From a virus (taxonomy: Duplodnaviria > Caudoviricetes), in IMG/VR virus record IMGVR_UViG_3300028048_003124: a DNA stretch of 64,000 nucleotides. One strand, 5' to 3'. Each line of letters begins with the position of its first letter. Positions within the stretch are counted from its first letter, which is position 1. Shown piece by piece: positions 16,906 to 63,879 of this stretch. The translations under genes and the position numbers were made by a program. The notes under the pieces were generated by a model. It was not told where the DNA came from. It did no database searches and saw nothing but the letters and a program-made list of their open reading frames with translations.

Positions 16906-19275
16906 ATGGCTGTAAAGAGGTTTATAGATGTTTATCCAAATAAGGTATATTTATGGGATAAAGAAAAGAATAATTGTAGTATAGATGATATACCTGCAAA
17001 CTCTAATAGTTGTATGTATTGGTGGAGATGCTCTAAGGGGCACTCATTCAGAAACACCCCAGCAAGGGTAGGTAAGTCTGTAGATGAGGGTTGCAGAGAA
17101 TGTCAGGGTAGAACTAAAACAAACTTTGATGGTCGCTCAATACAAGATGTGTACCCAGAAATAAAGGATATTTGGGATTATGATAAGAATACTTTCTTTC
17201 CTGATGAGTTACCAGCAGACAATACTTATAAGAAAGTATGGATACGTTGTTATGAGGGGCATAGTTTCCAAGTTACTCCTTATGAAATATCTTATCTAGA
17301 TGTTTCATGTCCAGTATGTGATAAGGAGAGTACTACAAACCCAGTATTCAAGGGTATTTATAGTAAATTGAAAGTTGTGTGGGATGAAGAAGAGAATGGT
17401 TTTCCTCTTTTAATGTTTAAAAGTCCTATAAAAGAGAAGTTCTTTTTTGTGTGTGAGCACAATCATAAATACTATAAGTCTTTTAGGTATGTAAGAGACA
17501 GGCTATTAGATGGAAAGAACCCATGTCCCTATTGTTCTGGAACATCTGTAAAGTCTGGTTTTAATGATTTATTAACTAAAAGACCTGATATAGCTAAGTA
17601 TTATGATACTGATAAGAATAGTGTAAATGCTTCAAATCTATATTATAAGAACAGTGATAATAGGTATTTTATTTGTAAGAAAGGTCATAGCTTTATATCC
17701 ACTATACATAAGGTAGATAGAGCTATGATAAAATCTAATGGTAGATTAGTGGGTTGTCCTTATTGTAGTGGAGCATTACTAAAAGAAGGGTACAATGACT
17801 TTGAGAGTCAGCATCCTGAGTTAATGTATTTGTGGAATTGGGAGCTAAATGATATACTGCCGTCAGAGATATCGTGTAAAGACAATACAACTTCTGTATG
17901 GTTTAGATGTTCTAATGGTCTCAATTATAAAACCTTTATAAGCAGTGTGGTAAATAGTAATAAGGAAGGTTGTCCTTTTTGTGTAGGCAGAGTTTCTAGT
18001 AAAAATATTATTCATAAACCCTTATCAGAGGAGTACCCAGATATAGCATTACTATATGATAGTGAAAAGAATATAGCACCCTTAGGTAAATTAACACGGT
18101 ACACTGGTGGTAAATATTGGTTTATTTGTAAGAGAGGTCATAGTTTTAGGCAATCTATATCACAAGTAATAAGGAGTATAACCACTACATGCGGTTGTCA
18201 AATATGTAGTGGCAATAAGATAGTTTCTGGAATTAATGATTTTGAGTCTCAGCACCCAGAGTTGATGTATCTTTGGGATTGGAATAAAAATGATATACTC
18301 CCCTCTGAAATCTCATGCAAAAATAATTCTAAGAAGGTATGGTTGGTTTGCTCGAATGGTCATAGTTACTCTACATATATAGATTCTTTGGTTAGAAGTA
18401 AATTTGAAAGTTGTCCTCATTGTTCTCATTTTGTATCTTCTGGTAGCTTAGAGTTACAAAAGATGCTTGAAAATCATGGTGTAACTGTTCAGTTAGAGTA
18501 TGTTATGCCCAGTGGAAAGCGATTAGACTTATATTTACCAGAGAATAATATAGCTATAGAGTACAATGGAATTTACTGGCATAGTGAGCAGTTTGTAGGA
18601 AAAGACTACCACAAAGATAAGTACAAAGAGTGCGAACTTTTAGGTATAAGATTATTTTTTGTATGGGAAGATGACTGGCTAAATAAAAAAGAGATAGTTA
18701 GTAGTATGATACTTAAAAAGTTAGGCTTGCTTGATCAAATAAAAATAAATGCAAGAGATTGTAGTATTTGTACCATAGATAAAGATGTCGCCAAGGATTT
18801 TTTAGATAAGAATCACATACAGGGTTACGTAAGCGGGTTTAAGTATTTATGCTTAAAGACTAAAAGTGGTGAAGTAGTAGCTGTAATGGTATTAAGACAA
18901 AGTGGGAAAAACATTCTAATATCAAGATATGCTACAAATTTTAATGTAAGAGGTGGGTTTACTAAATTATTAAAGTATGTTGAGAGAACAGAGAATTTTG
19001 AATACTTAGAAACATTCTCAGACAATGGGGTATCAGACGGCTCCTTATATAAAAATTCTGGTTTTACCTACGCTTATGAATTAAAGCCTACTTTTTATTG
19101 TGTATATGGTTCTAAGAGGTACCATAAGTTCAATTTTAGAAGTGATAGATTTGTAAGAGATAGCGATTTAGAGTATATTGAAGGTTTAACAGAAAGAGAG
19201 TTACAGGATCTTAATGGAATAAGGCGTATTTATGACGCCGGAAAGATAAAGTGGATTAAAAAGAAGCCAAATTAA
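16906..19275 (+). CDS. Zn-ribbon-array nuclease copy 1: 7 DUF4379-like modules, Vsr/DUF559-like nuclease, GNAT/Mom-like C-domain
   Basis: Seven W/F.C..(G)H...C..C units (one with H replaced by L); LDLYLP..IAIEYNGIYWHS...VWEDDW; NHIQG, RYAT..VRGGF.KLL, FSD...DGSLY..SGF, RIYDAGK. Confidence 0.85.
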   Translation: MAVKRFIDVYPNKVYLWDKEKNNCSIDDIPANSNSCMYWWRCSKGHSFRNTPARVGKSVDEGCRECQGRTKTNFDGRSIQDVYPEIKDIWDYDKNTFFPDELPADNTYKKVWIRCYEGHSFQVTPYEISYLDVSCPVCDKESTTNPVFKGIYSKLKVVWDEEENGFPLLMFKSPIKEKFFFVCEHNHKYYKSFRYVRDRLLDGKNPCPYCSGTSVKSGFNDLLTKRPDIAKYYDTDKNSVNASNLYYKNSDNRYFICKKGHSFISTIHKVDRAMIKSNGRLVGCPYCSGALLKEGYNDFESQHPELMYLWNWELNDILPSEISCKDNTTSVWFRCSNGLNYKTFISSVVNSNKEGCPFCVGRVSSKNIIHKPLSEEYPDIALLYDSEKNIAPLGKLTRYTGGKYWFICKRGHSFRQSISQVIRSITTTCGCQICSGNKIVSGINDFESQHPELMYLWDWNKNDILPSEISCKNNSKKVWLVCSNGHSYSTYIDSLVRSKFESCPHCSHFVSSGSLELQKMLENHGVTVQLEYVMPSGKRLDLYLPENNIAIEYNGIYWHSEQFVGKDYHKDKYKECELLGIRLFFVWEDDWLNKKEIVSSMILKKLGLLDQIKINARDCSICTIDKDVAKDFLDKNHIQGYVSGFKYLCLKTKSGEVVAVMVLRQSGKNILISRYATNFNVRGGFTKLLKYVERTENFEYLETFSDNGVSDGSLYKNSGFTYAYELKPTFYCVYGSKRYHKFNFRSDRFVRDSDLEYIEGLTERELQDLNGIRRIYDAGKIKWIKKKPN

Positions 19276-19284
19276 GGAGGTAAT

Positions 19285-21438
19285 ATGGCTGTAAAGAGGT
19301 TTATAGATGTATATCCAAATAAGGTATATTTATGGGATAAAGAGAAGAATAATTGTAATATAGAGGATGTACCTGCGAATTCAGGAGTAAATAGATATTG
19401 GTGGAGATGCTCTAAAGGTCATTCTTTTAGAAACACACCAAAAAGAATAGGTCTTGCTGTAAAAGAGGGTTGTATGTATTGTCAAGGGATAGTTGACGTC
19501 AAACCCTTTAAAGGTATTTCATTACAAGATGTGTACAGTGAAGCAAAGGACATTTGGGATTATGATAGAAATCCTTTCTTCCCATCAGAGATAAGTCATT
19601 TAAGTAAGGTTTCTGTTTGGATAAGATGTTATGAGGGTCATATCTTTAAAGTTAAGGTTTGTGACCTAGCTTATAAAGATATCTTGTGTCCATATTGTAA
19701 TAAGGAAGAGGTAGCAAGAGAGAAGTACGGTAGGTTCTATAAACCTTTAAAGTTTTTATGGGATAGTGAAAAGAACGGCATAGAGTTAGAAGAATTTGAA
19801 GGCGTACAGGATGAGGATAAGTGTTGGTTTAAGTGTGAAAAAGGTCATAGTTTTTATAGAACAATAAGTGTTGTAAAAGAAAGGTTAAGCCAGGGTAGGC
19901 ATTATTGTCAATATTGCTCTGGAACAAAACTCATGAGTGGTGTAAACGATATTGAAACCGTATACCCTGAAGTAGCTAAACTATTTGATAATGATAAAAA
20001 TAATGTCAAAGCGTGTGATATAAGTTTTAAAGAGTCAAGTTTAGATTTATGGTTTAGGTGTAAGGAGGGTCATAGTTTTAGAAAAAATCTAAAGGTGGTA
20101 AAAGACGGTGTTCTAAATGGCTCTGAGGTTTGTCCATACTGCAACGGTAAAGAGTTATTGTCAGGTTTTAATGATTTAGAAACAGTAATGCCAAATGTGA
20201 CTAAGTTCTTTGATATTGGAAAAAATGGCGTAGAACCTAAAAATGTTCGGGCTTCTGATAGTTCGGATATGTGGTTTTTATGTAAGGAAGGTCATAGTTT
20301 TGTTTCTAAGTCTAGACTTGTAAGAATTGCTTTAGATAACTCAAAAGGAAGATCAGTAGGATGCCCAATATGCAAGGGGTATGTTGTGTTACCAGGATAC
20401 AATGATTTTGAGTCGAAACATAGTGATTTATTATACTTATGGGACTACGATAAGAATAGTATATTACCATCAGAGATAACAGAGAAAAACAACACTACTC
20501 CTGTTTGGTTAAAATGCTCAAATGGTCACAGTTATTTAACATACATAAATAGTTTATTAAGAAGTAAGCATGAGTGTTGCCCATATTGTTCTCATTTAAT
20601 ATCAACTGGTAGTGAAGAAGTATATAATTTTCTTTTAGATTTTGGTATATATGTTCAAAAAGAAGGAGTACTTCCAAGCAAGAAAAGGGTAGATTTATTT
20701 ATACCAAGTAAAAACATAGCTATAGAATACAACGGGGTATATTGGCATAGTGATTTATATAAAAGTAAGAATTATCATAAAGAAAAATACGATGAGTGTA
20801 AAAATTTAGGTGTACAGTTATTGTATATCTATGAAGACGATTGGAGAGATAAAACAAGTATAGTAAAGAAGATGTTATTAAAAAAGTTAGGTTGTTTAGT
20901 AGAGAGAAATGTTAATGCCAGAGATTGTTTTATAAAGGATGTATATATTGATGATGCTAAAGAGTTCTTATCTACCAATCATATACAAGGGTTTGCTTCA
21001 GGAAGTAAGTATATAGGTTTATATGAAAACAATATTTTGGTAGCTTTAATTGTCGTAAGAAGAGACGGTAGTAATCTAAATATAGTAAGATATGCTACTT
21101 CTTGTAATGTAAGAGGTGGTTTCTCTAAGCTTGTTAGGTATATAGAGAGGAATTTATCTTATGAATATCTATATACGTTTTCAGACAACGGGGTATCTGA
21201 TGGTGGTTTGTATAAGAACACTGGTTTTCAAGAAGCATATAGTTTACCGCCAGATTATATGTATGTAATAAATGATATTAGAGTTCATAAGTTTAATTAC
21301 AGGATAGATAGATTCAGAAAAGACAAAAATTTAAAATACAAAGAAGGCTTATCGGAACGTGAATTAGCTGATTTAAATGGTCTTAAGCGTATTTATGACG
21401 CTGGAAAGATAAAGTGGATAAAAAAGAAGCCAGTCTAA
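19285..21438 (+). CDS. Zn-ribbon-array nuclease copy 2 (6 modules)
   Basis: Same architecture as copy 1; near-identical gene ends; AAGGAGG SD. Confidence 0.85.
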   Translation: MAVKRFIDVYPNKVYLWDKEKNNCNIEDVPANSGVNRYWWRCSKGHSFRNTPKRIGLAVKEGCMYCQGIVDVKPFKGISLQDVYSEAKDIWDYDRNPFFPSEISHLSKVSVWIRCYEGHIFKVKVCDLAYKDILCPYCNKEEVAREKYGRFYKPLKFLWDSEKNGIELEEFEGVQDEDKCWFKCEKGHSFYRTISVVKERLSQGRHYCQYCSGTKLMSGVNDIETVYPEVAKLFDNDKNNVKACDISFKESSLDLWFRCKEGHSFRKNLKVVKDGVLNGSEVCPYCNGKELLSGFNDLETVMPNVTKFFDIGKNGVEPKNVRASDSSDMWFLCKEGHSFVSKSRLVRIALDNSKGRSVGCPICKGYVVLPGYNDFESKHSDLLYLWDYDKNSILPSEITEKNNTTPVWLKCSNGHSYLTYINSLLRSKHECCPYCSHLISTGSEEVYNFLLDFGIYVQKEGVLPSKKRVDLFIPSKNIAIEYNGVYWHSDLYKSKNYHKEKYDECKNLGVQLLYIYEDDWRDKTSIVKKMLLKKLGCLVERNVNARDCFIKDVYIDDAKEFLSTNHIQGFASGSKYIGLYENNILVALIVVRRDGSNLNIVRYATSCNVRGGFSKLVRYIERNLSYEYLYTFSDNGVSDGGLYKNTGFQEAYSLPPDYMYVINDIRVHKFNYRIDRFRKDKNLKYKEGLSERELADLNGLKRIYDAGKIKWIKKKPV

Positions 21439-21450
21439 GGAGGTAATAAT

Positions 21451-22161
21451 ATGGCTGATAATTGGGACGATATATTTAATGGTGAACCAGAGGAAAATAA
21501 CTCTGAAGTAACTGAAGAGAAAAACTCAGGCGGTAATACTGGTGGTAGTAATCAGAATGAGCCGCAAAAACCTGTAAAATTGGGCAAGTGGGCAACAGCT
21601 GGAATAGTTGTGTTTGTTGCAATTGTGGCTTTTATTCTAGTGATAACCTTACGCAGTTGTACTATTGAAAAAGAGGTAAATTCTGCTCAACAGACAGAAC
21701 CGCCAGTTGTGGAGACAAAAATAGAATCCGAACAGGCTGAGAAACCTGTGGATAGCATTGCGAAAAATCCTGATTTGAAGCAAAATAATCAGGACGTTAC
21801 TCCTACATCACCCAGCGGTAGTAACAAGGTAGATTCTGAAAAAGAAAGCAAAAAGGATACCTCATCAGGTAATGCTGATAAAAAAGTGTCTGGAGATACT
21901 GGTATAGTTGAAGTGGATACTCCAGCGCTTGGAGATGCCCAGCAATCGAAGGGTATTGTTGTTTCAAAACATTCTTATTTGTATCATAGCAGTTATGTAT
22001 ATGGGGTATCAATTTCGGTACTTGTCAATGAGAATGCTCAAACTGTTATGTATTTTTGCCCGAAAAAGACATTCGATGCATTGAATTCTACGGATGCTGT
22101 AAACGTAGTTTATCAGAGAGACAGCGCAGGTCTTATTAGTATAATATCTATATCAAAGTAA
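21451..22161 (+). CDS. Bitopic membrane protein with a low-complexity linker and a small C-terminal beta (OB-like) domain
   Basis: TM AGIVVFVAIVAFILVITL; C-terminal KGIVVSK...FDAL...AVNVVY. Confidence 0.75.
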   Translation: MADNWDDIFNGEPEENNSEVTEEKNSGGNTGGSNQNEPQKPVKLGKWATAGIVVFVAIVAFILVITLRSCTIEKEVNSAQQTEPPVVETKIESEQAEKPVDSIAKNPDLKQNNQDVTPTSPSGSNKVDSEKESKKDTSSGNADKKVSGDTGIVEVDTPALGDAQQSKGIVVSKHSYLYHSSYVYGVSISVLVNENAQTVMYFCPKKTFDALNSTDAVNVVYQRDSAGLISIISISK

Positions 22162-22385
22162 GATATTAGTCTGTTTTTTCAGATGCTTTGTTATTTTCAG
22201 AGTATACGCTAAGAGCGTAGGTTACGCGATGTTCTTTTGAACGCCCGAGGTAGGTTTATGTGTAGCATTTTGTGTAGGCTTATTTTTCTACTTTGTATGT
22301 TTTGTGTATTTTGGCGCAAAATTACTCCACCGTTTGTGCAACATTCACAAATCGTATTTTTGAGGAAAGTTTTTCGAAAAAACGC

Positions 22386-22414
22386 TTGCATTTTCTTTTC
22401 GGGTGTGCTAAGAT
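22386..22414 (+). promoter_or_regulatory. Sigma-A-like promoter with extended -10
   Basis: TTGCAT-17 nt-TAAGAT with TG at 22406-22407; palindrome TTTTTCGAAAAA immediately upstream (22370-22381). Confidence 0.7.
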
Positions 22415-22486
22415 ACAATCATCAAATCAAGCTTGGCGTAAGGCTTGATTCGGTACAACAAAATTTATTGTAAAGGAGAACAGATT

Positions 22487-23266
22487 ATGCCGTTAACTAA
22501 GAATAACACTAAGGCAGCCGCTGAGACTGCAAAGAAGGTAGAAGCCGCAGCTGTTGCTGAGGCTCCCGTGTACGATGCAGGTGTTCTGGGCAGCAAGTCC
22601 AACACTATTGCTTTCGTTGCTCCTCTTGGAGATCCCTCTCGTATCGACAACACTTATGCTCCCAACGAAAAGGGTGAGAGCACTATCGCAGGTAAGACCC
22701 CCTACATCGTAGGTTATCGTCTGAAGGCTCTCGTTGATATGGTCGTTCCCGAGTGCGGTATGGGCGCAGATGCTCGTAAGAACCTGATGACCTATGTTGA
22801 TGCTACTGGCACCAAGCAGGTTAAGGCTGGCGAGGAGTTCGACCTTACGAGATTCGAGACTGGACTTCTGCTTGCTCCCGACGAGTACAATGGTCGCATC
22901 ACTGGCGAAGGCAAGGCTTTCTCTGTTGTATATCAGCAGAAGAAGAATCCTGGAGCAGAGGCTGGTAAGATTGCTGACGTTTCCGCAGCATCCGCTATCC
23001 CGACTGTTTCGATCCGTCCTGAGTCTGGTTCCATCAAGGATTATCAGATCCTCGAAGTCCTGTCTTTCACCTCTGAGAAGGTTCCTGTTGGCAACAACGG
23101 TCACACTCAGATCCGCAAGACCAGAACCATCAATCCTGGATTCGAGAAGTTCGAGGCTCTGTGCCAGGCAGCTCCGCCTCGTGTTCGTAAGTCCAGTTCT
23201 GCTCCTAAGGCTCGCCGTAATGCGGGTGCGCAGGCGTTCCTCGATATCGTTAACAAGCGCAAGTAA
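22487..23266 (+). CDS. Hypothetical Ala/Lys-tailed protein, probably very highly expressed and monocistronic
   Basis: AAAGGAG SD; the most GC-rich and codon-biased gene in the window; own promoter and terminator. Confidence 0.85.
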   Translation: MPLTKNNTKAAAETAKKVEAAAVAEAPVYDAGVLGSKSNTIAFVAPLGDPSRIDNTYAPNEKGESTIAGKTPYIVGYRLKALVDMVVPECGMGADARKNLMTYVDATGTKQVKAGEEFDLTRFETGLLLAPDEYNGRITGEGKAFSVVYQQKKNPGAEAGKIADVSAASAIPTVSIRPESGSIKDYQILEVLSFTSEKVPVGNNGHTQIRKTRTINPGFEKFEALCQAAPPRVRKSSSAPKARRNAGAQAFLDIVNKRK

Positions 23267-23309
23267 TTCAGATTATCTCGTTTATTTCGATAAAGCGGTA
23301 GCATAGCGT

Positions 23310-23350
23310 AAGCGATGAGCAAGAGTTTCGGCTCTTGCTCATTTGCTTTA
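23310..23350 (+). terminator. Strong hairpin with TTCG loop, probable terminator
   Basis: ATGAGCAAGAG-tTTCGg-CTCTTGCTCAT followed by TTGCTTT. Confidence 0.85.
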
Positions 23351-23376
23351 TATGGAAAAGTGAATAAAGATTGTAG

Positions 23377-23419
23377 AAGGTAGTAAGACAGTTTGTATCT
23401 GTTTTACTACCTTTTCTTT
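23377..23419 (+). terminator. Second hairpin with T tail
   Basis: AAGGTAGTAAGACAG-7 nt-CTGTTTTACTACCTT followed by TTCTTT. Confidence 0.7.
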
Positions 23420-23469
23420 ATGAAGAAAGGTAAGATGGTATAAACTAATTACGAGATAGGGTGGTTGCT

Positions 23470-24321
23470 ATGAGAGTGGAAGATAACGACAAGAGGTTTT
23501 CTAGATTAGTATCTTTTAAACTACTAAAGACGATGGGTATTATTTCTATTATTTTTATGTTAATATGTTCTCTTATCTGCTTAAGGTCTGTGTCTTTAGA
23601 AGGATCATCGAAAACCGAAGGTGTTAAAGATTGTAAAATATTAGAATCAAGCGGTCGGGTAGTTAGTCCTAATGCTAAAAAGTCTGTTAATCTTGCAGAG
23701 ATAGTTGTAGAGACAACTACTCCTACAGAGAAGCCAAAAGTTAAGGAAACAGAGAAACCTACAGTAATTCCAACAGAACCTCAGACAGAAGTTCCTACGG
23801 AGTGGTACGATAATACTAATTTTGGGAATAGCATACGAAGATCAGATGTTCCAAACTACGATTGGGGTGAGGAGATAGCGACTTTTTCGTGTGAGAGCTT
23901 AGGCATAAAAGATATGCCTATAATTTATGGTTGGACGCAGTATTTATGTGATACTAATGATATAGTAATGGATCCTCATACAGGCGCCAAATTTGGTGAC
24001 AATAAAGCTATATTTATCTGTGGACACGATTACAAAGGCATGGGTAGTAAGTTACCAGAAATGAAGATAGGTGATAAGTTTTTAATAAAAACTAGATACT
24101 GTGCTAATTTTTTATACGAAGTGACCTACAGTAAGATGGCAAAATTAGACGAAGATAGTGATAGTTTTTATGGAATGTATGATTTAGATACTTGGCAACA
24201 CGCTCTGGGTAGATGGGATGAGACTAAAGATGTGGGAATATTTACTTGCTATGCTAATTCAGATGCTGGCTACAGGTGGTTTGTAAAGGGGAAGTTAGTA
24301 AAGGGTACTAAAGTGAACTAA
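23470..24321 (+). CDS. Sortase-fold protein
   Basis: N-terminal TM and T/E/P linker; LGIKDMPIIYG, ICGH (His), KIGD.F.I.T...YEV, IFTCY (Cys), downstream Arg (YRWFV). Confidence 0.8.
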   Translation: MRVEDNDKRFSRLVSFKLLKTMGIISIIFMLICSLICLRSVSLEGSSKTEGVKDCKILESSGRVVSPNAKKSVNLAEIVVETTTPTEKPKVKETEKPTVIPTEPQTEVPTEWYDNTNFGNSIRRSDVPNYDWGEEIATFSCESLGIKDMPIIYGWTQYLCDTNDIVMDPHTGAKFGDNKAIFICGHDYKGMGSKLPEMKIGDKFLIKTRYCANFLYEVTYSKMAKLDEDSDSFYGMYDLDTWQHALGRWDETKDVGIFTCYANSDAGYRWFVKGKLVKGTKVN

Positions 24322-24506
24322 TGCGTAAAACAAGAATTATGATGAATACTGGTATGGTTTTAGACAAAAATACTATGGAACCAGCAGTAGTACCGTATGA
24401 GAAGTCAAAATATTTAGAATTGTTTACTTGTACCGATGAATGGGGTATGAATTACCGTTACTTGGTTAGGGCGTACCTTGCGGACGGAGTAGTTTTATGT
24501 GACTAA
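24321..24506 (+). pseudogene. Small ORF matching the C-terminal catalytic strands of a second sortase
   Basis: LELFTC.......RYLVRA parallels IFTC......RWFVKG of the upstream gene; no His motif and no TM. Confidence 0.5.
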
Positions 24507-24548
24507 GAGCTTTGGTACGTAAACTTTAACATTAAGGGTGAAGTAATT

Positions 24549-25829: not shown

Positions 25830-25848
25830 TTTATTGGAGGACTTAAAA

Positions 25849-26724: not shown

Positions 26725-26746
26725 AAGAGAAAGGGGGTAGCATTTA

Positions 26747-27031: not shown

Positions 27032-27066
27032 AATATTTGTTGCAGAAAGGTTGTAGGTTATTTACT

Positions 27067-28243: not shown

Positions 28244-28289
28244 GCTAATTTTGATAGCTATATAGGGTTGGCAGAAGGAGGAAAGACGT

Positions 28290-29244: not shown

Positions 29245-29334
29245 GTTGGCAGTAAATTAGACTTTGTTTTCTAGAATACATAATAAAAAAGTGTAAGTAT
29301 TTTAGTATGTTAAAGTTTACAGGAGGTTTGTTAA

Positions 29335-31530
29335 ATGAAGCATATTATAATATTGGATAGTATTTTTATTGGAGATGATTGGAGAAATAAAAGTATAGAT
29401 GAAAAAGTAGCTTGTAGGTGTTTAGTATGCGGAAAGAGTAGGGTATTAACAATAAAACAGGCATTAAAGTATTATGAACACAGAAACCCTCAATATAATA
29501 AAGTACCTATTTGTGAAGATTGTTTAAAAGGTCAATCAACTGCAAATAACTTAATACCTTTAAATATTAAGTCAAATATCTCTATAACAACGATGAAAGA
29601 GATATACAGTGGTTTTGAAGATGTAGTATCTGATTACTTTAGTAGTGACATGAGTACTGCAGTTTTTGCTACTAAGTGTATTAGATGTGGAAAGAACTAT
29701 TATGATACTTATAATACAATAGTAAGAAAAGGAGAATTCGTATGTACAAGCTGTCACAAGAGGGGTATTTACGCTGAAAGATTAGGCTACAGAACTCTAA
29801 GCGAGATGGTACCAAATATAGAGAAATACTGGTCAGATAAAAATAGTTTACAACCTAGCGAGATACGTTTAAAGAGTACGGCAAGAGAAAAATTTTATAC
29901 AACTTGTCCTTTATGTGGTAAGGAGACGCATAAACGGTATGATGCTATACTGCGTAGTGGACCATACTGTGGACCGTGTGCAAGAAGGGTAAATGTATCA
30001 AAGGAGGAGACATTACGCTATTTATATCCAAGGGTTGCTGATATGTATGATGCATCTGATAGAAATGTATTATCCTCAGATAAGATTAGGTCAACTTCTA
30101 AGGGAGATTTTTATTTTAGGTGTAGTATTTGTGGAGAGGTATTTAAGAAGAGTTTAGCAAATATGGTAAAGGCTTTTGAAAGTGATAGTTCGTTTAAGGG
30201 ATGTCCGATATGTGCAGGTCATGAAATTAGAAAGGGTATCAACGATATAACAAGTGGTAAAAATCCATTAGCCTTAAAGTATTGGGATTATAATAAAAAT
30301 TTATCAGATGGTATAAAACCAGAAGATTTGAGTTACAAGTCGACAAGGAAAGTTTGGTTTAGATGTGGGAAGGGGCATAGTTTTTATAGGAGTGTATATA
30401 AAATACTAAGTTGTAATGAAAATAGTTATGGAAAAGGTTGCCCGATATGTTCTGGGAGAAAGGTAGAAGTTGGTGTAAACGATGTAGGAAGTACAAACCC
30501 AGATATTTTATCGAGGTGGGACTACGAACGTAATGAAGAGTTGGGAGTAAGACCAACAGATGTAACATCTTGTAGCAATAAAACTATATGGGCAAAGTGC
30601 AAGTTATGCGGTATGTCTTATCTAACAGAGGTGCAGTATCTTACAGGAGGGTTGGTTAATACTTGTGGGAATTGTCGTAAACGTAATTATAGTATAGCAG
30701 AGAAGGAGTTAGCTGATTATATACGCGATTTAGGGTTCTCGGTTGAAGAGGAGGTTCAAATAGGTAACCATTATAGTGTAGACATAGTGATAAGAGAAAA
30801 AGGTATAGCTATAGATTATAATGGTTTGTACTGGCATAGTGATAGGTATAGAGATAAATGGTACCACTACAATAAAATGGTTTTATGTAGAGACAGAGTT
30901 GGCTTAGACCTATATTATATTTGGGAGGATTGGTACAAGGAAAGACCTGATATTGTAAAATCTTGGTTAAGAAATATACTTGGTAAAAGTAATGATATAA
31001 AGATAGGAGCCAGAGAATGCAAAGCAGGGTATGTAAATACTGCATCTGCTATAGACTTTTTAAATAAACACCACATACAAGGTGCAGTTTCTTGTTCATA
31101 TTATATGGCTTTATATAAGGAGGGTATTGGTATTGCAGCTTTAATGGCTTATTCTGTAACTAGTAAAGGTTTGTACATACAAAGGTATTGTACTTCTTGT
31201 AAAGTACAAGGGGGTTTTAGTAAGTTACTTAATGAGGTATTAAAGACCGTAAATGTTGATACAGTTTATACTTTTTCAGATAATTCTATATCTTCTGGAT
31301 CATTATATGCTAGCACAGGTTTTATAATAGATAGTGAACTTAACCCAGACTATAGCTATTTAGTAGGTAATAAAAGAGAGCATAAATTCAATTATAGAAA
31401 GGCTCGTTTTGAGAAAGATAAAAACTTATATTATGAGGACGGAATGACAGAAAAGGAGTTAGCTGAGGTAAATGGCTTATACAGGGTGTATGACGCTGGA
31501 AAGGTACGGTGGGTAAAATACTTAAAATAG
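29335..31530 (+). CDS. Zn-ribbon-array nuclease copy 3 (6 modules, mostly C4 type)
   Basis: CxxC...CxxC and CxxGH...CxxC units; VDIVI..KGIAIDYNGLYWHS, IWEDW; HHIQG, RYCT..VQGGFSKLL, RVYDAGK. Confidence 0.85.
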   Translation: MKHIIILDSIFIGDDWRNKSIDEKVACRCLVCGKSRVLTIKQALKYYEHRNPQYNKVPICEDCLKGQSTANNLIPLNIKSNISITTMKEIYSGFEDVVSDYFSSDMSTAVFATKCIRCGKNYYDTYNTIVRKGEFVCTSCHKRGIYAERLGYRTLSEMVPNIEKYWSDKNSLQPSEIRLKSTAREKFYTTCPLCGKETHKRYDAILRSGPYCGPCARRVNVSKEETLRYLYPRVADMYDASDRNVLSSDKIRSTSKGDFYFRCSICGEVFKKSLANMVKAFESDSSFKGCPICAGHEIRKGINDITSGKNPLALKYWDYNKNLSDGIKPEDLSYKSTRKVWFRCGKGHSFYRSVYKILSCNENSYGKGCPICSGRKVEVGVNDVGSTNPDILSRWDYERNEELGVRPTDVTSCSNKTIWAKCKLCGMSYLTEVQYLTGGLVNTCGNCRKRNYSIAEKELADYIRDLGFSVEEEVQIGNHYSVDIVIREKGIAIDYNGLYWHSDRYRDKWYHYNKMVLCRDRVGLDLYYIWEDWYKERPDIVKSWLRNILGKSNDIKIGARECKAGYVNTASAIDFLNKHHIQGAVSCSYYMALYKEGIGIAALMAYSVTSKGLYIQRYCTSCKVQGGFSKLLNEVLKTVNVDTVYTFSDNSISSGSLYASTGFIIDSELNPDYSYLVGNKREHKFNYRKARFEKDKNLYYEDGMTEKELAEVNGLYRVYDAGKVRWVKYLK

Positions 31531-31532
31531 AA

Positions 31533-31572
31533 ATAGAGTATCCATAAAAGATACTCTATGGGTATTATATTT
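31533..31572 (+). terminator. Stem-loop after nuclease copy 3
   Basis: ATAGAGTATC-7 nt-GATACTCTAT; weak T tail. Confidence 0.45.
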
Positions 31573-50092: not shown

Positions 50093-50103
50093 TTGGTGAT
50101 ATT

Positions 50104-52085: not shown

Positions 52086-52090
52086 CAATT

Positions 52091-52130: not shown

Positions 52131-52142
52131 AGGTGGTTAATT

Positions 52143-53393: not shown

Positions 53394-53402
53394 AGGTGTA
53401 TA

Positions 53403-54650: not shown

Positions 54651-54665
54651 TTTTTGGAGGTTGTA

Positions 54666-55688: not shown

Positions 55689-55689
55689 T

Positions 55690-56826
55690 ATGCCTAAGAG
55701 GTTAGTTAGTGTACTTTTGGTGCTGTTAGTAGTAATAAGCATATCTACATTTAATGTAAAAGCAGCTGATGAGGAGTACAAGACTTTTATGCAGATAGAT
55801 GATAGATGGAGATACAAGCATTTTGGTAATGGCGATGAGATAGGCGCTACAGGTTGTTGGATGGTATCTTACTGCATACTATTTGCTTTTGCAGACCCAT
55901 CTTTAAGAGATGTAAATAAGTGGAATCCAGGAATAATGGGGGAAGAAGGAGGGTACTTACATTTCGATGAAAGCAGTTGTATCACAGATCCAAACCCTAT
56001 AAAAGGACCATTAACTTATGTAGGAAGCGAATCTTACTATTCAAAAGAGGATGTAAATAATGCTTGTAAGCAAGCAATAAAAGAAGGAAAGTATATAATA
56101 GCTTGGTCTGACTTTTCAGGGACTCACTTCAGTCCAGTAACTGGTTGGGATAAAGAGGGCGATCATCCATATATTCACGATGTAGGGTATTACCCTCCAG
56201 AAGAGGGATATGATAGGTTTACAAGTACTGGTATAACAAAATTGTTTTTTTATGAGAGTAGTATGGAGCCTTCGTATGCTTCATATAATGGTGAAATAGT
56301 AGGCAGTTATGAGCAGGATAATGCGGATACTAAGTCATCAGAAGATTTAGGTGAGATATTATCAGAGTGGGATTTAACTGGAATGCCATTGAGGTCAAAG
56401 ATAGCAGCAGAGTATTTGATACCATCAGTAGAAGAGATCCAAGAAGGTAAAGATAAATACAATATGCTTCAAATTAAAGAAAACATTGATCTAAGAAAAA
56501 AATCATCATTAAATATTGCTAATATTGCTGTAACTGTTTTTGGTATTTTATTAATGGTGTATGGTTTATTACTACTAATATCATTCTTTTTTGACAGGTT
56601 TAATAATTTTTTTGATTTTTCATTAATAAGCGTACTATCTATAGGGCGAATAAAATTGGCAGATAGTGGAGAGGTAATAACAGATGAGATGAGAAAGCAG
56701 GGGTTTGTAACAAGCACAACTTTATTGATACGTATAGGTGTAATAGAGTTAATAGGTGGTTTACTTGTATCTGGCGTGATAGTTCGTTTAATATTTAAGA
56801 TAGTGCAGGCTATAATTGTGAATTGA
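55690..56826 (+). CDS. C39-like peptidase, paralog 4 (divergent catalytic domain)
   Basis: QIDDRW, GCW, THF, IHD; SEWDLTGMP; FFFDRFN. Confidence 0.72.
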   Translation: MPKRLVSVLLVLLVVISISTFNVKAADEEYKTFMQIDDRWRYKHFGNGDEIGATGCWMVSYCILFAFADPSLRDVNKWNPGIMGEEGGYLHFDESSCITDPNPIKGPLTYVGSESYYSKEDVNNACKQAIKEGKYIIAWSDFSGTHFSPVTGWDKEGDHPYIHDVGYYPPEEGYDRFTSTGITKLFFYESSMEPSYASYNGEIVGSYEQDNADTKSSEDLGEILSEWDLTGMPLRSKIAAEYLIPSVEEIQEGKDKYNMLQIKENIDLRKKSSLNIANIAVTVFGILLMVYGLLLLISFFFDRFNNFFDFSLISVLSIGRIKLADSGEVITDEMRKQGFVTSTTLLIRIGVIELIGGLLVSGVIVRLIFKIVQAIIVN

Positions 56827-56831
56827 GATAT

Positions 56832-56887
56832 GCTACATACGTTGAGGTTTTCTGTAGAGGCTTTCTTCGTATGTAGCTTTTCTTTTT
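56832..56887 (+). terminator. Stem-loop with T tail closing the peptidase array
   Basis: GCTACATACG...CGTATGTAGC followed by TTTTCTTTTT. Confidence 0.65.
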
Positions 56888-56922
56888 CGGATAGCTATGT
56901 GTTTTTATTGGAAGGTTTGTGT

Positions 56923-57246
56923 ATGGCGGTATATGATTTAAAAAGGGTGACTAAAGCCTATGTAAGTGGCTTTTATAAATATATAAATTTTAAGAAACTA
57001 AACGATGCTTCGGCTAGTGGTTTATATGATTTATTCTCTTATAGTTTAAAGAATATATATGGTTTACCCCCATCCGAGAAAGGGTACTATATAGATATGT
57101 ATGGAGATAGTTGTATAGATTATTTAAAGAAGTTAAAGGGTGTACCGAAAAGGATTGATAGGTTAGGCTCTACCGAAAGGTTGAGCATTGTGACTATGTG
57201 TCAGAGTTATTTTGTGGCTGTTGATTATGTACACTTTAATAAATAA
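56923..57246 (+). CDS. Hypothetical protein
   Basis: Start moved to ATG 56923 (GGAAGG SD) because the upstream part of the ORF overlaps the terminator. Confidence 0.65.
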   Translation: MAVYDLKRVTKAYVSGFYKYINFKKLNDASASGLYDLFSYSLKNIYGLPPSEKGYYIDMYGDSCIDYLKKLKGVPKRIDRLGSTERLSIVTMCQSYFVAVDYVHFNK

Positions 57247-57257
57247 GAGGTTGTAGT

Positions 57258-58082
57258 ATGGGTATTAAAAACCATTTTGAGGACTGTCCTTATAACTGTA
57301 ATATGTTCGGTAAGTTGCTTGATCCTAATACTGGAAACATGATAGACTGCCCCCATTGTTCTAAACTAAAAAAGGAGATGCTTGCTAAGGGTGTTGCAGT
57401 AGAAGAGGATGAAAATAGGACATTACCTTTAGCGGAGCTATTGGGTATAAAGTCTAAATATCTTTCTAAAAACTTTGTCTTTGATACTCTAATACCTGAG
57501 GGTGAGTGTCTTTTTTTAGAAGATGATAGTATTGATTTTGTTAAACGAGAAACAGAGGCTTTATACCATACGCTATCATTAGGGGAATTACCTGAGTACA
57601 GTGTATGCTTTGGTATATCTATAAAGGGTAGGGCTGATAGATTGGCTTATCCTTTATTAGCGACCAGTTATCTTAAAGGTTTGAGTGTAGGTAAGTTTAT
57701 AACCTGTAGTGAATTAAGCAGACTACAATTAAAGGGTAGTGATGAGTACGATAGTTATATATCTTCAGATGTTCAAATCATTTTAATAGGAGAGGGTAGT
57801 ACAAAGGGTGAAATCTCTTGTGCAAAGGGTTTAATGCAGTCAAGAGCATTAAAAGGTAAACCGACAATTTTTATAACTACTTGGACGATAGAAGCTTGTA
57901 GTCTAATGCTTGGGTATTTAGATGATACAGATAATATGCTGTTGGCTAGACCTGTATTTGTAAAGTATAAGAATAGTGGAAAGTCCTCTAATTACATTAA
58001 CAAATTGACAGGTGTAGAGAACGATAGGTATGATGAAGAAACCGACATGGGTGGACAGGGTTTTTCAATTGCAGATTTATAA
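57258..58082 (+). CDS. DnaC/IstB-like AAA+ protein with an N-terminal Zn finger and degenerate nucleotide motifs
   Basis: CPYNC...CPHC; DVQIILIGE (Walker B position); SRALKGKPTIFITT; no GxxGxGKT. Confidence 0.55.
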   Translation: MGIKNHFEDCPYNCNMFGKLLDPNTGNMIDCPHCSKLKKEMLAKGVAVEEDENRTLPLAELLGIKSKYLSKNFVFDTLIPEGECLFLEDDSIDFVKRETEALYHTLSLGELPEYSVCFGISIKGRADRLAYPLLATSYLKGLSVGKFITCSELSRLQLKGSDEYDSYISSDVQIILIGEGSTKGEISCAKGLMQSRALKGKPTIFITTWTIEACSLMLGYLDDTDNMLLARPVFVKYKNSGKSSNYINKLTGVENDRYDEETDMGGQGFSIADL

Positions 58083-58106
58083 TATAAGTAAAGAGAGGTT
58101 GTAATT

Positions 58107-59267
58107 ATGAAATATAATGATGTAGTTTTTCGTAATCCAATTAAGGTTGTAACTTGTGAGAGTGTTACAGAAGGTCATCCTGATAAGTTATGTGATATTA
58201 TATCAGATTCTATTCTTGATGCATATCTTTCAAAAGATAAGAATGCAAGAGTAGCTTGTGAGACTATTGCTAAGGATAATACGATTATCCTAGTAGGTGA
58301 GGTATCAAGTAATGCTTACGTTGATAGAAGAAAAGTCGTATCTAAGGTACTGAAGAAAGTAGGGTATGACGATGAGGAGTTGTGGGGTACCGATTACAAA
58401 ACATTTAAACTGATAGACTTGTTGGGAAGTCAGTCGAAAGATATAAGCAAAGCCGTAAACAAGGAAAAAATACAAGCAGGAGACCAGGGGATTATGTATG
58501 GGTATGCTTGTGATGAGACAGATTGTTTCATGCCTTTAGCTTATGTTTTGGCAACAAGATTGGTAAAGAAGTTAGCAGAGGAGAGAAAGTCTGGGCATTC
58601 AAACTTCTTGGGACCTGATGGTAAGGCTCAGGTATCTGTTGTGTATTATGATGATGGTACTTATGAGGTAGCTAATGTTGTAATTTCATCCCAGCATTTT
58701 ACAATATCTTTAGATAAAGATAAGGAGCTTGAAATTCTTCGTAAGAGTATTCTTGATTATGTTGTGAAGCCAGTATTGGGTGCATTAATGCCACGAGAGG
58801 GTGCTGTGTTTATCAATCCAGCTGGAAGATTTGCTATTGGTGGACCTACTGGAGATAGCGGTTTAACTGGTAGGAAGTTGATGGTCGATACCTATGGTGG
58901 TGTAGCCCATCATGGTGGTGGTGCTTTCAGTGGTAAAGATCCAAGTAAGGTAGATAGAAGTGGTGCATATTTTGCAAGATGGCTAGCTAAGCTAGTAGTA
59001 TGTAGGGGTATCGCTAGTGAATGTGAGGTTATGTTATCTTACATGATAGGAAGATCTGAAACGACGAGTGTACTCGTTAATGCAAAATACAATGAAGGTT
59101 ATAAATTAAGAGATGTTTTAGATATTGTTGAGGAGTTTGATAGCTCTCCTCAGGGTATTATTGATAGGTTTAAACTATTTGATATTCATAACTATTCAAG
59201 TGTTGCAGCCTATGGACATTTTGGTGAAAATGCCAAGGATATGCCTTGGGAGAACGTTGAATTATAA
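58107..59267 (+). CDS. metK: S-adenosylmethionine synthetase
   Basis: ESVTEGHPDK, AGDQG, PDGKAQV, GDSGLTGRK, GGGAFSGKDPSKVDRS, YGHFG. Confidence 0.97.
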   Translation: MKYNDVVFRNPIKVVTCESVTEGHPDKLCDIISDSILDAYLSKDKNARVACETIAKDNTIILVGEVSSNAYVDRRKVVSKVLKKVGYDDEELWGTDYKTFKLIDLLGSQSKDISKAVNKEKIQAGDQGIMYGYACDETDCFMPLAYVLATRLVKKLAEERKSGHSNFLGPDGKAQVSVVYYDDGTYEVANVVISSQHFTISLDKDKELEILRKSILDYVVKPVLGALMPREGAVFINPAGRFAIGGPTGDSGLTGRKLMVDTYGGVAHHGGGAFSGKDPSKVDRSGAYFARWLAKLVVCRGIASECEVMLSYMIGRSETTSVLVNAKYNEGYKLRDVLDIVEEFDSSPQGIIDRFKLFDIHNYSSVAAYGHFGENAKDMPWENVEL

Positions 59268-59286
59268 ACAACTTGTTATATTAAGA

Positions 59287-59336
59287 TAACGGTATTAATT
59301 GTAAGTTTTTGCTTATATTAATGCCGTTAATTTTTT
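59287..59336 (+). terminator. Intrinsic terminator after metK
   Basis: TAACGGTATTAAT...ATTAATGCCGTTA followed by ATTTTTT. Confidence 0.7.
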
Positions 59337-59703
59337 AGATATAGATTTTTAGTCTGGTATGGCAGACTAATTAAAAACTATGAGATAGAAGTAAAAGTAT
59401 TATAAATTAGAAGTAGGTTGTTTAAGATTTTTTCCTAAATTTGATTTATTTAATGTTTAATAGATTATATGGTTTTTGGTAAAGATTATTAAATAAAAAT
59501 TTCTTAGAATTGTGTATTTTATATAGATTGTATCAAAGAATTTTAGTTATTTTTATGTGTTTAGTTTCTTGTAGGTATAGTAATTTTTTATTTTGTTTTA
59601 AAATAAATATTCCAAGAAGGATCTTTTTAGTTTAACTAAAGAGTCTTTAGTTTTAACTTAAATAAAGATTGCCTATATTATAATTTTAAAAGGAGCAAAA
59701 ACA

Positions 59704-61251
59704 ATGGGGTATACGCCTAAGATTTATAGGGTTGCAGATATGTTAAAGGGTGTTGAGTATGATAATAATTTCAAAGATGATGATGTTTACTTTTGGTCGA
59801 CTCCAAGAGGAGATGGTTATGGAACAGTAAAAGATATGGTAGAAACTTGTGGTTTGTACGATAAGTATGAGTTTATGTGTAAATATTGTAATGTAAAAAC
59901 CTTAAAGATGGGTGTAAGTATCGTAAACACTGGTTTATTGTGCAAGGATTGTGCAAAAACAAGTTATTATGTCAACACATGGTCAAAGGTTTTTCCGTTT
60001 TTTGATAAGATGTATGATTCGGAAAAGAATACTGTTCCTCTTGAAAGGTTAAGGAGAAGTGATAATAAGAATGATTACTGGTTTGTATGTGAAAAAGGTC
60101 ATAGTTTTACTTCAAAAATAAGAGGGGTATTAAATAGTACAACTGGTTTTCATGGTTGTCCTGTGTGCTCTGGAAGGAGTTTAGTAGAGGGTAATTCACT
60201 ATATGATGTTTTTGGAGATATGGTAGACGGGTATTGGGATTATGGCAAGAATGACAGTAACGGACTAAAACCTGATATGATAGCTCCTCATTCAAATGTC
60301 AGGGCTTTTTGGAGGTGTATTAATTGTGGTAAGACCTATGAACAGCCGATATGTAATAGGGTAGTTTCAGTAGGGTATTGTCCTGATTGCGTGAGTAAGA
60401 TGTACCAGTCGTCTGGAGAGGCTGAACTGGCTGATTGGCTTAGTAGGTATGTCGATGTAGTTGAAAGGTATAAATTCGCAGGAAGGGGTACAGAGTTAGA
60501 TATTTATATACCATCAAAGCATATAGGCATAGAGTTTAATGGTATATATTATCACTCTGATGCGATATTAACCGATAAGAATAGTGACTATAAAAAGTAT
60601 AAGAAAGCAGAAGAGAGGGGTATAACCTTTATGTGTGTGTCTGGGAGGACGACTGGAAGTACAAGAAAGACTTGGTAAAGCTAATGATACTAAGGAAATT
60701 AGGTTTAAGCACCGAGAGGAAGGTAAATGCAAGAGATTGTAGGGTAGTTAAAAGCTCTGGTTCTTCTGGGTTGTTAGATAGTTATCACATTCAAGGAAAG
60801 GTAAATGTAGGCTGTAAATATTATCACTTAGTTGAGAAAAATGGTAATGTAGTAGCCGAGTTAGCCTATAAACAAGATGAAGAGAGTGTATACATAATCA
60901 GATATGGCAGCTCCTGAATAGTAAGGGGGTGGTTTTTCTAAGATTTTGAGCGTATTAAAGTCAACCGAAGGGTGTAAGATTATTTACACCTTCTCGGATA
61001 ACTCTGTATCTGACGGTAGTATGTATAGGGTGTGTGGTTTCAGAAAGGTAGAAGATTTGAGACCAGATTACTCCCACGTATCCAAGGGTAGAAGGGTACA
61101 TAAATCAAACTTTCGGAAGGACAGATTCCTCAAAGACGAGGGATTGATTTACAAGGAAGGGTTAACTGAGAAAGAATTAGCTATGGTAAACGGATTAAAC
61201 AGGGTATATGATTATGGCAAGGTACGTTGGGAGTTAGCTGTTGAGAAATAG
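59704..61251 (+). pseudogene. Zn-ribbon-array nuclease copy 4 (3 modules), interrupted
   Basis: Three ORF pieces are collinear with the intact paralogs; extra TG at 60632-60640, TGA at 60915-60917, extra G in the run at 60925-60929. Confidence 0.85.
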
Positions 61252-61280
61252 TAATCTATTGAGAAGGGTATAGAGAGCAA

Positions 61281-61838
61281 ATGAGGAAGATAGTATTTGT
61301 AGATATGGACGGTGTAGTAGCCCGTTATGAGAGGTGGGCTTACCGTGGCAGAATTATAGATGATGTAAGAGAGAAAGAACCCATCTTTACGCAGAAGGGT
61401 AGTAAGTTTTTCAGAACTTGTAAACCTGATTTAAATGCAATAAGGATGGTAAAAGGCTTAAACAGTATAAACTCCTTATCAGTAATGGTATTATCAGGGG
61501 TATCATCAGGGGAAGTTGGTGAGGAGCAGATAGAAGATAAGTCCTACTGGTTAAAGAAAAATATGCATTTCCTAAACGAAACACAACAGCTATTCACAAG
61601 TGGTAGTAAGGTAGCAGAGGCTTGTAACTTTTTAGGTATAAGGAAACTAAACAAAGACTTAATTTTAATAGATGATTTTAATGGCAACCTGTTAGAGTGG
61701 GAGAAGGCTGGAGGAGTGGCAATAAAGTATATCAATGGGGTAAACTCAGAGAGCAGCTGGAATGGTTTAAAGGTAAGAAGCGATAGTGTTGTAGGGGATA
61801 TAGTAGTTATAATGAATACATTGGGTATAGTTTGTTAG
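61281..61838 (+). CDS. HAD-family 5'(3')-deoxyribonucleotidase-like phosphatase
   Basis: VFVDMDGV, VLS, K..WL, ILIDD...NL..W..AGG.AI. Confidence 0.82.
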   Translation: MRKIVFVDMDGVVARYERWAYRGRIIDDVREKEPIFTQKGSKFFRTCKPDLNAIRMVKGLNSINSLSVMVLSGVSSGEVGEEQIEDKSYWLKKNMHFLNETQQLFTSGSKVAEACNFLGIRKLNKDLILIDDFNGNLLEWEKAGGVAIKYINGVNSESSWNGLKVRSDSVVGDIVVIMNTLGIVC

Positions 61839-61863
61839 GCGTTTGTAAAAAGGAGTGTTTTGT

Positions 61864-63879
61864 ATGATATATAAATTAGAGGACTATGTTGTAAATGCGG
61901 AAAAATTGTCGATGGACAAAGTATACACTTGGAGTATATTGGGTAATTTATATGACGGGACTGTACAAGATTTTATAGAGAGTACGCTAGATGTCGGTGT
62001 TACATACTCATTTGTGTGTAATAATTGTGGTAAAGTGTGTACTAAAGGTGTAAATTCAATATTAAGGGGTGGACTTTTGTGCGCACCTTGTGCAAGGGCA
62101 GTGGGGAGACAGAAAAAGAAATTGGAGAAAGGTTTAAGCTTGTACAATTATTACCCAGTTGTTGCAGAGTGGTTTGATAATGCAGGAAATGGTGTCAGTT
62201 CTAAAGATGTGTATTTTAACTCTCAAGATAAGTATTTGTTCAAATGTCCAAAGTGTGGGGTAATATACAAGAAGGCTCTTAATCTTGTGGTAAACTCTTA
62301 TGTAAAGCATAACTCAAACGGATGTAGGGTATGTGCAGGATATCAGGTATTGGAGGGTTTTAATGATATAACTGCGAGAAATAAACCATCAGCAGAGTAT
62401 TGGGACGAGGAGAAAAATGGAATACCAAGTAATAGGGTATTGTGGAGTGACCAAAATCCTCGATGGTTTAGATGTCCTGAGGGGCACTCTTATCAAAGAA
62501 CACCTTTCAGAATGTTAAACTCCTATAATAAGGGTATAGATGGTAAAGACCTATGTCCTATATGTAAAGGAACTGAGGTGCTGAAAGGATACAATGACAT
62601 AGCGTCTAGGAATCCTTTGGCACTAAGATACTGGGATTATGATAAGAATGGTGATAATACTCCAGAGACCGTTTATTACAGGTCTCACGTTCAGTACTGG
62701 TTTCGTTGTGGAGAGGGGCATAGTTTTCTAAAAAGACCTAATGAGTTTTATCTGCAACTGAACAATGTAGGTATGTCTGCTGAGGGTTGTCCTGTGTGTT
62801 CTGGAAATAGGTTTTCTGGTGGTGTTAACGATTTATTAACAAAGTATGGAGAAACAGTTGAAAAGTATTGGGATTATGAGAAGAACACAGAGAGACCTGA
62901 AGAGGTGTTCGCCTATTCAGGGAAAGAGTATTGGTGGAAATGTGTAAAATGTGGGAAAAGTTTCTTGCTTGACAACGACAGAAGGGTGCGAGGTTTAGGT
63001 TTGTGTGAAGATTGCAGGGTAATAAAATCTGTCAGTACTTTTGAAATTGAGGTTTACAATGAGGTGAAGAAACTGTACTTAAACGCTGAAAGTCAGGTAC
63101 AGTTTGATGGGATGACATACGATATCTACGTGCCAGATAGGAAATTAGTTATTGAGTGTAATGGTGTGTATTGGCATTCAGATGCCGTAAGTAGGTATAC
63201 AGATGGAAATCATAATAAAAAGAGGCTCAATACTCTAAGAAAGAATAGGTTGTCCCTATTTGTAATATGGGAAGATCAGTGGGTAACAAATAAAGACCTG
63301 GTTCTGAGGGTATTAAAAAGAAAACTTGGTAAGAGTACTGAAAAGAAGGTAAATGCCAGAGACTGTGTAGTATCTGAACAAGGAAGTAGTTCAGGGGTAA
63401 TACAAAACAATCATATTCAAGGTGATGTGGGTGTTGGTTGTAGATATGTTTCATTGGAGCTAAACGGGTATCCTGTGGCAGAGATAGCCTATAAGTTAGA
63501 TGAGAATGGTTTATACATATGTAGGTATGCAACAAACAGTCTTGTTAGAGGTGGTTTTTCGAAGTTATTAAAATATCTGATTGATACAGCTTGTGATGAT
63601 GGATGTTGTATATACACCTTTTCAGATAATAGTATATCTGACGGAAACCTATATAGGGTATGTGGTTTTGAAAAAGTTGATGAGTTAGCATCTGATTATA
63701 TGTATGTCTATAAAGATATAAGGTATCATAAATTTAACTTTCGAAAGAGTAGATTTAAAAAAGACCCTAATTTAAAATTTGAGGAGGGTATGACTGAAAG
63801 AGAATTAGCAAACCTTAATAAAATATACAGGGTATATGATTATGGCAAGGTAAAGTGGCAATTGATAGTAAAAAAGTAA
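61864..63879 (+). CDS. Zn-ribbon-array nuclease copy 5 (5 modules)
   Basis: AAAGGAG SD; five Zn modules; YDIYVP..LVIECNGVYWHS, IWEDQW; NHIQG, RYAT..VRGGFSKLL, RVYDYGK. Confidence 0.85.
   Translation: MIYKLEDYVVNAEKLSMDKVYTWSILGNLYDGTVQDFIESTLDVGVTYSFVCNNCGKVCTKGVNSILRGGLLCAPCARAVGRQKKKLEKGLSLYNYYPVVAEWFDNAGNGVSSKDVYFNSQDKYLFKCPKCGVIYKKALNLVVNSYVKHNSNGCRVCAGYQVLEGFNDITARNKPSAEYWDEEKNGIPSNRVLWSDQNPRWFRCPEGHSYQRTPFRMLNSYNKGIDGKDLCPICKGTEVLKGYNDIASRNPLALRYWDYDKNGDNTPETVYYRSHVQYWFRCGEGHSFLKRPNEFYLQLNNVGMSAEGCPVCSGNRFSGGVNDLLTKYGETVEKYWDYEKNTERPEEVFAYSGKEYWWKCVKCGKSFLLDNDRRVRGLGLCEDCRVIKSVSTFEIEVYNEVKKLYLNAESQVQFDGMTYDIYVPDRKLVIECNGVYWHSDAVSRYTDGNHNKKRLNTLRKNRLSLFVIWEDQWVTNKDLVLRVLKRKLGKSTEKKVNARDCVVSEQGSSSGVIQNNHIQGDVGVGCRYVSLELNGYPVAEIAYKLDENGLYICRYATNSLVRGGFSKLLKYLIDTACDDGCCIYTFSDNSISDGNLYRVCGFEKVDELASDYMYVYKDIRYHKFNFRKSRFKKDPNLKFEEGMTERELANLNKIYRVYDYGKVKWQLIVKK

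Follow-up and report, generated by a model that had tools for sequence, protein, structure and literature searches.

What are the five related genes, one of them broken, that lie on a single 64,000-nucleotide stretch of viral DNA (the window; IMG/VR virus record IMGVR_UViG_3300028048_003124), and what is the function of the Mom-like domain at the end of their products? A preliminary description of this DNA had left two answers side by side: a reprogrammable single-gene system resembling restriction-modification, or an expanding family of free-standing homing endonucleases. We conclude, with a probability of about 0.85, that the five are free-standing Hef-like homing endonuclease genes of the EDxHD (Vsr-like) family. 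This reading is based on full-length matches to a homing endonuclease profile, on the presence or absence of the genes in close relatives and on the decay of one copy; it sustains the second of the two earlier answers, while nothing found here supports the first. The find as such is ordinary, for the family is huge, is named in phage annotation and is already in print. Two features lend it some value: the loci form a natural experiment, described below, and thousands of homing endonucleases have a fixed Mom-like domain that conserves its active-site residues. Copies of the gene were counted within the 64-kb window and are called c1 to c5 in their order along it.

Membership of a very large family

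Four of the genes (c1, c2, c3 and c5) match PHROG 559/3339, annotated as 'homing endonuclease', with E values of 1e-59 to 1e-91 and over about positions 145-601 of the 607 in the profile; the two halves of c4 match it separately. A tblastn search led to 475 phage records, the best of which are annotated as "Hef-like homing endonuclease", and it placed matches at 9-12 places per genome in Campylobacter phages. With the C-terminal domain alone as the query 268 phage records were found, in 254 of which the match spans 80% of the domain or more. They include Hef168, F-LimVII (LIMEstone-type), Hef-like proteins, PA5oct and Lak megaphages, together with a copy in AR9 that lies under an RNA polymerase beta' annotation, in agreement with the earlier remark that phage Hef-like endonucleases have similar C-termini. 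An exhaustive HMMER search found the domain in about 10,400 representative clusters; among the 150 best of these it is almost always at the C-terminus of a protein of 450-900 amino acids (aa) with the nuclease on the same chain. Judged by these sequence matches, which are far stronger than chance would give, the five genes belong to the Hef-like homing endonuclease family, which has been described already and is very large.

The EDxHD family was defined with the Hef-type enzymes included (PMC3239194); the properties of Hef itself are cited here through PMC2988022 and PMC3239194. Hef of the T-even phage U5 and the Hef-like genes of the Campylobacter NCTC12673/CP220 group, LIMEstone1 (F-LimIII/VII/VIII/X), AR9/PBS1 and PA5oct resemble the present copies in their PHROG match and in their C-terminal domain of about 180 aa. 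The Hef-like genes also share with them the order of modules, Vsr-like nuclease and C-terminal domain, and a distribution of many copies per genome at intergenic sites; four free-standing Hef-like genes have been reported from one phage (PMC3296691). The present copies differ in showing no more than 25-37% identity with any phage record, in belonging to an uncultured rumen element and in having up to 7 modules. Arrays of CapR, DUF4379 or DUF723 modules joined to EDxHD nucleases make up a large group of homing endonucleases in phage group I and II introns, an outgroup with thousands of members whose modules are likely to bind DNA (PMC12350094). These intron enzymes have 3-5 zinc modules of about 60 aa followed by an EDxHD/Vsr-like nuclease, as here; the copies in the window are unlike them in being free-standing (no intron by Rfam), in reaching 7 modules and in the addition of the Mom-like domain.

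Occupied and empty sites in close relatives

The relatives are five metagenome contigs from the rumen (L002-L006), 88-96% identical to the window and found by exact-protein look-ups. A megablast search with 20 kb of the window against phage records gave no match, neither of two IMG/VR scans with neighbouring proteins brought up a relative, and a look-up of the exact c1 protein sequence returned no record. The preliminary description had proposed a comparison with related elements for empty sites, and that comparison provides the new finding of this work: related rumen contigs lack c2, c3, c4 or c5 (absences seen in L002, L003, L004 and L006), and the gaps of c3 to c5 are intergenic. In L002, which is 96% identical at the nucleotide level, the c1 ortholog (97.6% identical, with 19 of 789 residues different) is followed directly by the gene that comes after c2 in the window; c2 and c3 are both absent. 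The c3 cassette (Table 1) is a clean insertion/deletion difference of 2245 bp against L002 at a terminator hairpin, and imperfect copies of its site are present on both sides. Neither L003 nor L004 has c4, their empty site being 7 bp long and flanked by a terminator hairpin and the ribosome-binding site of the gene that follows, and an intact c4 ortholog (674 aa, five modules; P0167) occupies exactly that site in L005 and L006. The c5 gene is found in L003 (98% aa identity), where the ortholog uses the same ATG start, and is missing from L006, where 36 bp stand instead; in the relatives it is located directly 5' of gyrB.

The junctions of c3, c4 and c5 run from a terminator hairpin, or from the stop codon of the upstream gene, to the ribosome-binding site of the next gene; c2 and c1 are arranged in tandem. 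Occupied and empty sites are known to the base for three copies, offering a natural experiment in which the cleavage and specificity of a DUF4379 array may be tested. At the c5 position in L004 there is a filler of 115 bp (L004 10425-10539) with about 50% G+C that resembles nothing in the window and replaces the end of a 185-aa gene and all but the last ~15 nucleotides (nt) of c5; its origin would be either the scarring of a repair event or a join made in assembly.

Decay of one copy and selection on another

The preliminary description had taken c4 to be broken. It is, although the damage is not a simple break and consists of three lesions: the (TG)4 run at 60632-60639 has gained a further TG, a TGA stop codon is present at 60915-60917 and the run at 60925-60929 has one G too many. 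At all three places the intact letters are found in contigs of four further bovine-gut runs, drawn from as many studies, and the lesions occur in the present genome only; the c4 region is present in bovine-gut runs from nine studies. Two RNA runs contained just 5% of c4 words. The loss of one base from the G run near 60618 was considered as the cause of the frameshift and ruled out, the contigs showing the TG expansion instead.

Upstream of 60154, c4 differs completely from P0167 and from the intact contigs. The join is positioned just before the second ligand pair of a module (GCPVCSG), so that the three-module array here corresponds to a five-module array elsewhere, and this pair of orthologs is a ready substrate for specificity tests. 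The c5 gene and its L003 ortholog differ by 48 synonymous and 12 non-synonymous changes, giving a ratio of non-synonymous to synonymous substitution rates (dN/dS) of 0.058 (0.057 for the GNAT part alone); c5 is under strong purifying selection, its Mom-like part included. For c1 against L002 the dN/dS value is about 0.20, with few changes.

Layout of the genes

Each gene has a zinc-module array, a nuclease of ~100 aa and a C-terminal domain of 178 aa, in that order (Table 1). Parsing of the modules by regular expression and MAFFT bore out the five paralogs with 7, 6, 6, 3 and 5 modules of the preliminary description, and its conserved C-terminal part of about 280 aa was recovered as ~290 aa with 38-57% identity among the copies (301 aligned columns, 71 invariant). 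Searches of the window for intron RNA (Rfam) and for tRNA detected none, so the genes are free-standing.

Table 1. Positions of the five genes and of the domains and module discussed in the text
Feature	Position	Strand	Description
c1	16906-19275	+	intact, 789 aa, 7 DUF4379 modules
c1 nuclease	about 18430-18738	+	
c1 Mom-like GNAT domain (modelled part)	18739-19272	+	AF2, Foldseek, Pfam Mom, hhalign residue map
c2	19285-21438	+	intact, tandem paralog, 717 aa, 6 modules; GNAT domain 20902-21435
c3	29335-31530 (open reading frame)	+	731 aa, 6 modules, own ribosome-binding site; cassette 29289-31533
c4	59704-61251	+	pseudogene, 3 modules
c5	61864-63879	+	intact, 671 aa from ATG, 5 modules; GNAT domain 63352-63876
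c5 module 4 (modelled)	62593-62814	+	AF2, predicted local distance difference test (pLDDT) 88.6, built from 26 window modules

The paralogs c1 and c2 are collinear. Their nucleotide identity is 40-75% in the interior and higher towards the ends: the first 30 codons are 98% and 91% identical, and the final 15 are 93% identical. A repeat of ~75 nt that comprises the 3' end of the gene, the stop codon, the ribosome-binding site and ATGGCTG brackets c2, and it could drive both gene conversion of the gene ends and the loss of c2. In c1 and c2 alike, the stop codon and the ribosome-binding site of the gene downstream (TAAGGAGGTAAT) overlap (19230-19290 and 21393-21455). Between c4 and c5 is an open reading frame (ORF; 61281-61838) that is a separate gene, with a PHROG match to a 5'-3' deoxyribonucleotidase-like protein.

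Zinc modules and nuclease

The modules are ~70 aa long with the consensus ..ND....P....WD..KN...P.......WF.C..GHSF(12-25 variable)CP.C.G, in which C..CG replaces C..GH in some cases. They match Pfam DUF4379 (PF14311, "probable treble clef zinc finger") with E values of 1e-17 to 2e-44, the scores of 61-150 bits lying well above the cut-off of 24.5. All 26 window modules share C39, C66 and C69, and the segment between the two ligand pairs varies in both length and sequence, as had been described for nearly every module. The best PDB neighbours of the modelled module are structures of mt-SAF33, a DUF4379 protein of trypanosome mitoribosomes (template modelling (TM) score 0.66-0.69), and no meaningful PDB neighbour was found besides the DUF4379 proteins of the trypanosome mitoribosome. 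The array most likely binds DNA.

The nuclease carries the motifs D..., IE/DYNG.YWHS and WED. It matches the catalytic domain of I-Bth0305I (PDB 3R3P) with E 9e-4 as a single sequence and E 2.8e-8 as a family profile, which agrees with the Vsr/DUF559-type nuclease proposed earlier; Pfam MTES_1575 (19-34 bits, below the cut-off of 38.2), Vsr and DUF559 are weaker matches. The four intact copies all have the aspartate of D[LI][YFV], the glutamate and asparagine of IE/DYNG and the histidine of YWHS. By homology the domain is Vsr-like and related to the EDxHD family, and it most likely cuts DNA. I-Bth0305I has a homologous nuclease core and, like the present proteins, N-terminal DNA-binding modules; it is unlike them in being intron-encoded, in having modules of the NUMOD/helix-turn-helix (HTH) type and in ending at the nuclease, with no GNAT domain (PMC3239194).

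The Mom-like C-terminal domain

The AF2 model of the c1 C-terminal domain has a pLDDT of 96.5, and Foldseek ranks the Mu Mom crystal structure (8BV8; E 1.2e-7, TM 0.60) first among its PDB matches, ahead of many GNAT acetyltransferases. VIA-align gives Z scores of 13-15 to GNAT proteins and places Mom at rank 44 (Z 13.3, the top score being 15.0), so Mom is not the single closest GNAT. The model firmly supports a GNAT fold, as the preliminary description had proposed in calling the domain Mom-like, and a specific kinship to Mom is likely.

Mu Mom moves glycine from Gly-tRNAGly onto the N6 of adenine, and its active site consists of H58, Y59, R111, S124, D149, R151 and Y159 (PMC13219725). A hhalign alignment to the single Mu Mom sequence (PF25680 is the Pfam family) equates H26 with H58, R63 with R111, S/T75 with S124, D95 with D149 and Y104 with Y159, keeping five of the seven active-site residues; Y59 aligns to Ile. 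This residue map is of low confidence because the alignment is weak (E 0.06), and the fold match lends it support. Among the 150 closest representative clusters the equivalents of H58, R111, D149 and Y159 are kept in 144-150, and that of S124 in 134. The motif HKFN-x-(F/Y)R-x-x-RF is common to the domain and to Mom. A canonical coenzyme A (CoA)-binding motif of the GNAT type is not evident in the domain. Acetyl-CoA, which had been suggested as the donor, is no longer the obvious candidate given that Mu Mom uses Gly-tRNAGly (PMC13219725), and now that this is known the question of what the Mom-like domain does has become a cheap one to address.

The conservation of the polar residues and the low dN/dS value indicate that the GNAT domain still does something. 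Most likely, from these sequence data, it has kept an activity on DNA, either base modification or base-flipping binding, and it may be an active modifier, serve for binding or act as a device of self-protection.

Mechanism and competing explanations

A homing cycle of the following kind would account for these genes. The DUF4379 array would bind a long DNA site close to the insertion point of its own gene, the Vsr-like PD-(D/E)xK domain would cut alleles that lack the gene, and recombinational repair would then copy the gene into the cut allele. Recombination at the second ligand pair (GCPxCSG) would change the arrays by altering the number of modules, and the activity of the GNAT domain would serve either self-protection or target recognition.

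A number of observations weigh against this account. The absence of a gene from a relative can mean deletion as well as a site that was never invaded, and each difference may be a gain or a loss. In L004, c5 is absent through a deletion that extends into the end of the preceding gene and has the 115-bp filler in its place, and c2 could have been deleted from L002 by way of the ~75-nt flanking repeat. Divergence beside c3 is only slightly raised, so there is no clear co-conversion tract. In the nuclease, the position of D222 of I-Bth0305I, the last aspartate of the EDxHD motif, aligns to histidine in all of the copies. The C-terminal domain scores 24.7 bits against Pfam Mom, under the cut-off of 27.1 (E 0.01 is reached by just 4 of 32 family members); the position equivalent to R151 is variable (C/T/S/E); and the HTH-like insertion of Mom is missing, with a gap in the hhalign alignment opposite Mom 176-198 and a short beta-hairpin in the model. 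The host element, an uncultured rumen element of ~225 kb that is phage- or plasmid-like, may not be a phage.

The departures from Mom are grounds for seeing the GNAT domain as a catalytically dead relic, a platform for DNA binding or dimerisation in homing endonucleases that carry out no modification chemistry. Both R151 and the insertion (residues 175-209) are essential in Mom (PMC13219725), the lack of an evident canonical CoA-binding motif points the same way, and I-Bth0305I works without any GNAT domain (PMC3239194). We consider this quite possible, though we would not bet on it: H26, R63, S/T75, D95, Y104, H129 and K130 are near-invariant over 150 clusters and the dN/dS is 0.06, both of which go beyond what a scaffold would need. 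At the other extreme each protein may be a restriction-modification-like weapon on a single chain, in which the Mom-like domain marks the element's own adenines and the nuclease attacks unmarked DNA of hosts or competitors; such a gene would be a tool of defence or exclusion and not a selfish one. Fusions of Mom domains to restriction-fold endonucleases, the same joining as here, have been published from jumbo phages, and it has been proposed that in them Mom protects while the nuclease restricts (PMC7824862, section 3.4.7). The retention of most Mom catalytic residues (in the weak alignment) under purifying selection and the nearly constant union of nuclease and GNAT domain on one chain, in the 150 best of the about 10,400 clusters, are consistent with this idea. 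A Pfam scan of the copies found no S-adenosylmethionine (SAM) methyltransferase domain, and the role of modifier could fall only to the GNAT domain, which is without the R151 and the essential insertion of Mom. Five diverged paralogs with different DNA-binding arrays, gained or lost singly among genomes that are 88-96% identical and with one copy decayed, form the pattern of selfish genes and not that of a maintained defence; the AR9 member under an RNA polymerase beta' annotation and the published relatives in group I and II introns (PMC12350094) argue in the same direction. We therefore regard the weapon as improbable.

The proteins might also be site-specific nucleases that have been domesticated and work for the element, for instance in recombination, in the processing of the genome or in the exclusion of related elements, and that are neither mobile nor selfish. 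The strong conservation of c5 and its ortholog, the location of c5 directly before gyrB and the overlap of stop codons with downstream ribosome-binding sites, which suggests integration into local expression, would all be in keeping with domestication. Given that some close relative does without each of the copies apart from c1, and that c4 is decaying, we think it very unlikely. Homing endonuclease genes remain the preferred reading, and within it we can envisage a more specific and speculative arrangement. The Mom-like domain would be an active base modifier, possibly dependent on aminoacyl-tRNA, that labels, within the resident genome, the sites which its own endonuclease recognises; every gene would thereby form a self-immunising cut-and-protect unit on a single chain, with its specificity set by a recombining zinc-module array. 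This arrangement is an outside prospect.

Genomic surroundings

The window has a G+C content of 33-42% and almost all of its long ORFs are on the + strand. Among the recognisable neighbours of the five genes, phage-like replication functions are represented by a clamp loader, a 5'-3' exonuclease and an SNF2 helicase, while an ArdC-like protein, FtsK/HerA-type ATPases, a ParA-like protein, a sortase-like protein and a GDSL lipase are of conjugation- or surface-like character. Most of the neighbouring genes, large ones among them, are without a PHROG or Pfam family, and the element may be a phage or a conjugative element.

A SAM synthetase gene (58107-59267; three Pfam MetK domains) and c4 stand where the relatives have an unrelated gene of 339 aa (58022-61266 in the window; 6311-7991 in L003 and 8325-9986 in L004). 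Upstream of this point the relatives are 71-79% identical and downstream of it 93-97%, a shift that shows the element to be a mosaic. Another strain-variable cassette is found at 13380-14450, where a segment of ~1.07 kb is replaced by 41 bp in L002; its 248-aa ORF (13381-14127) has a weak match to a HipA_C-like kinase (25 bits, below the cut-off). The stretch at 22001-24000, in which an Rfam search found no family, has a local G+C content of up to 42% and a low GC skew, and ORFs overlap there on opposite strands (22445-23266 on the + strand and 22493-23104 on the - strand).

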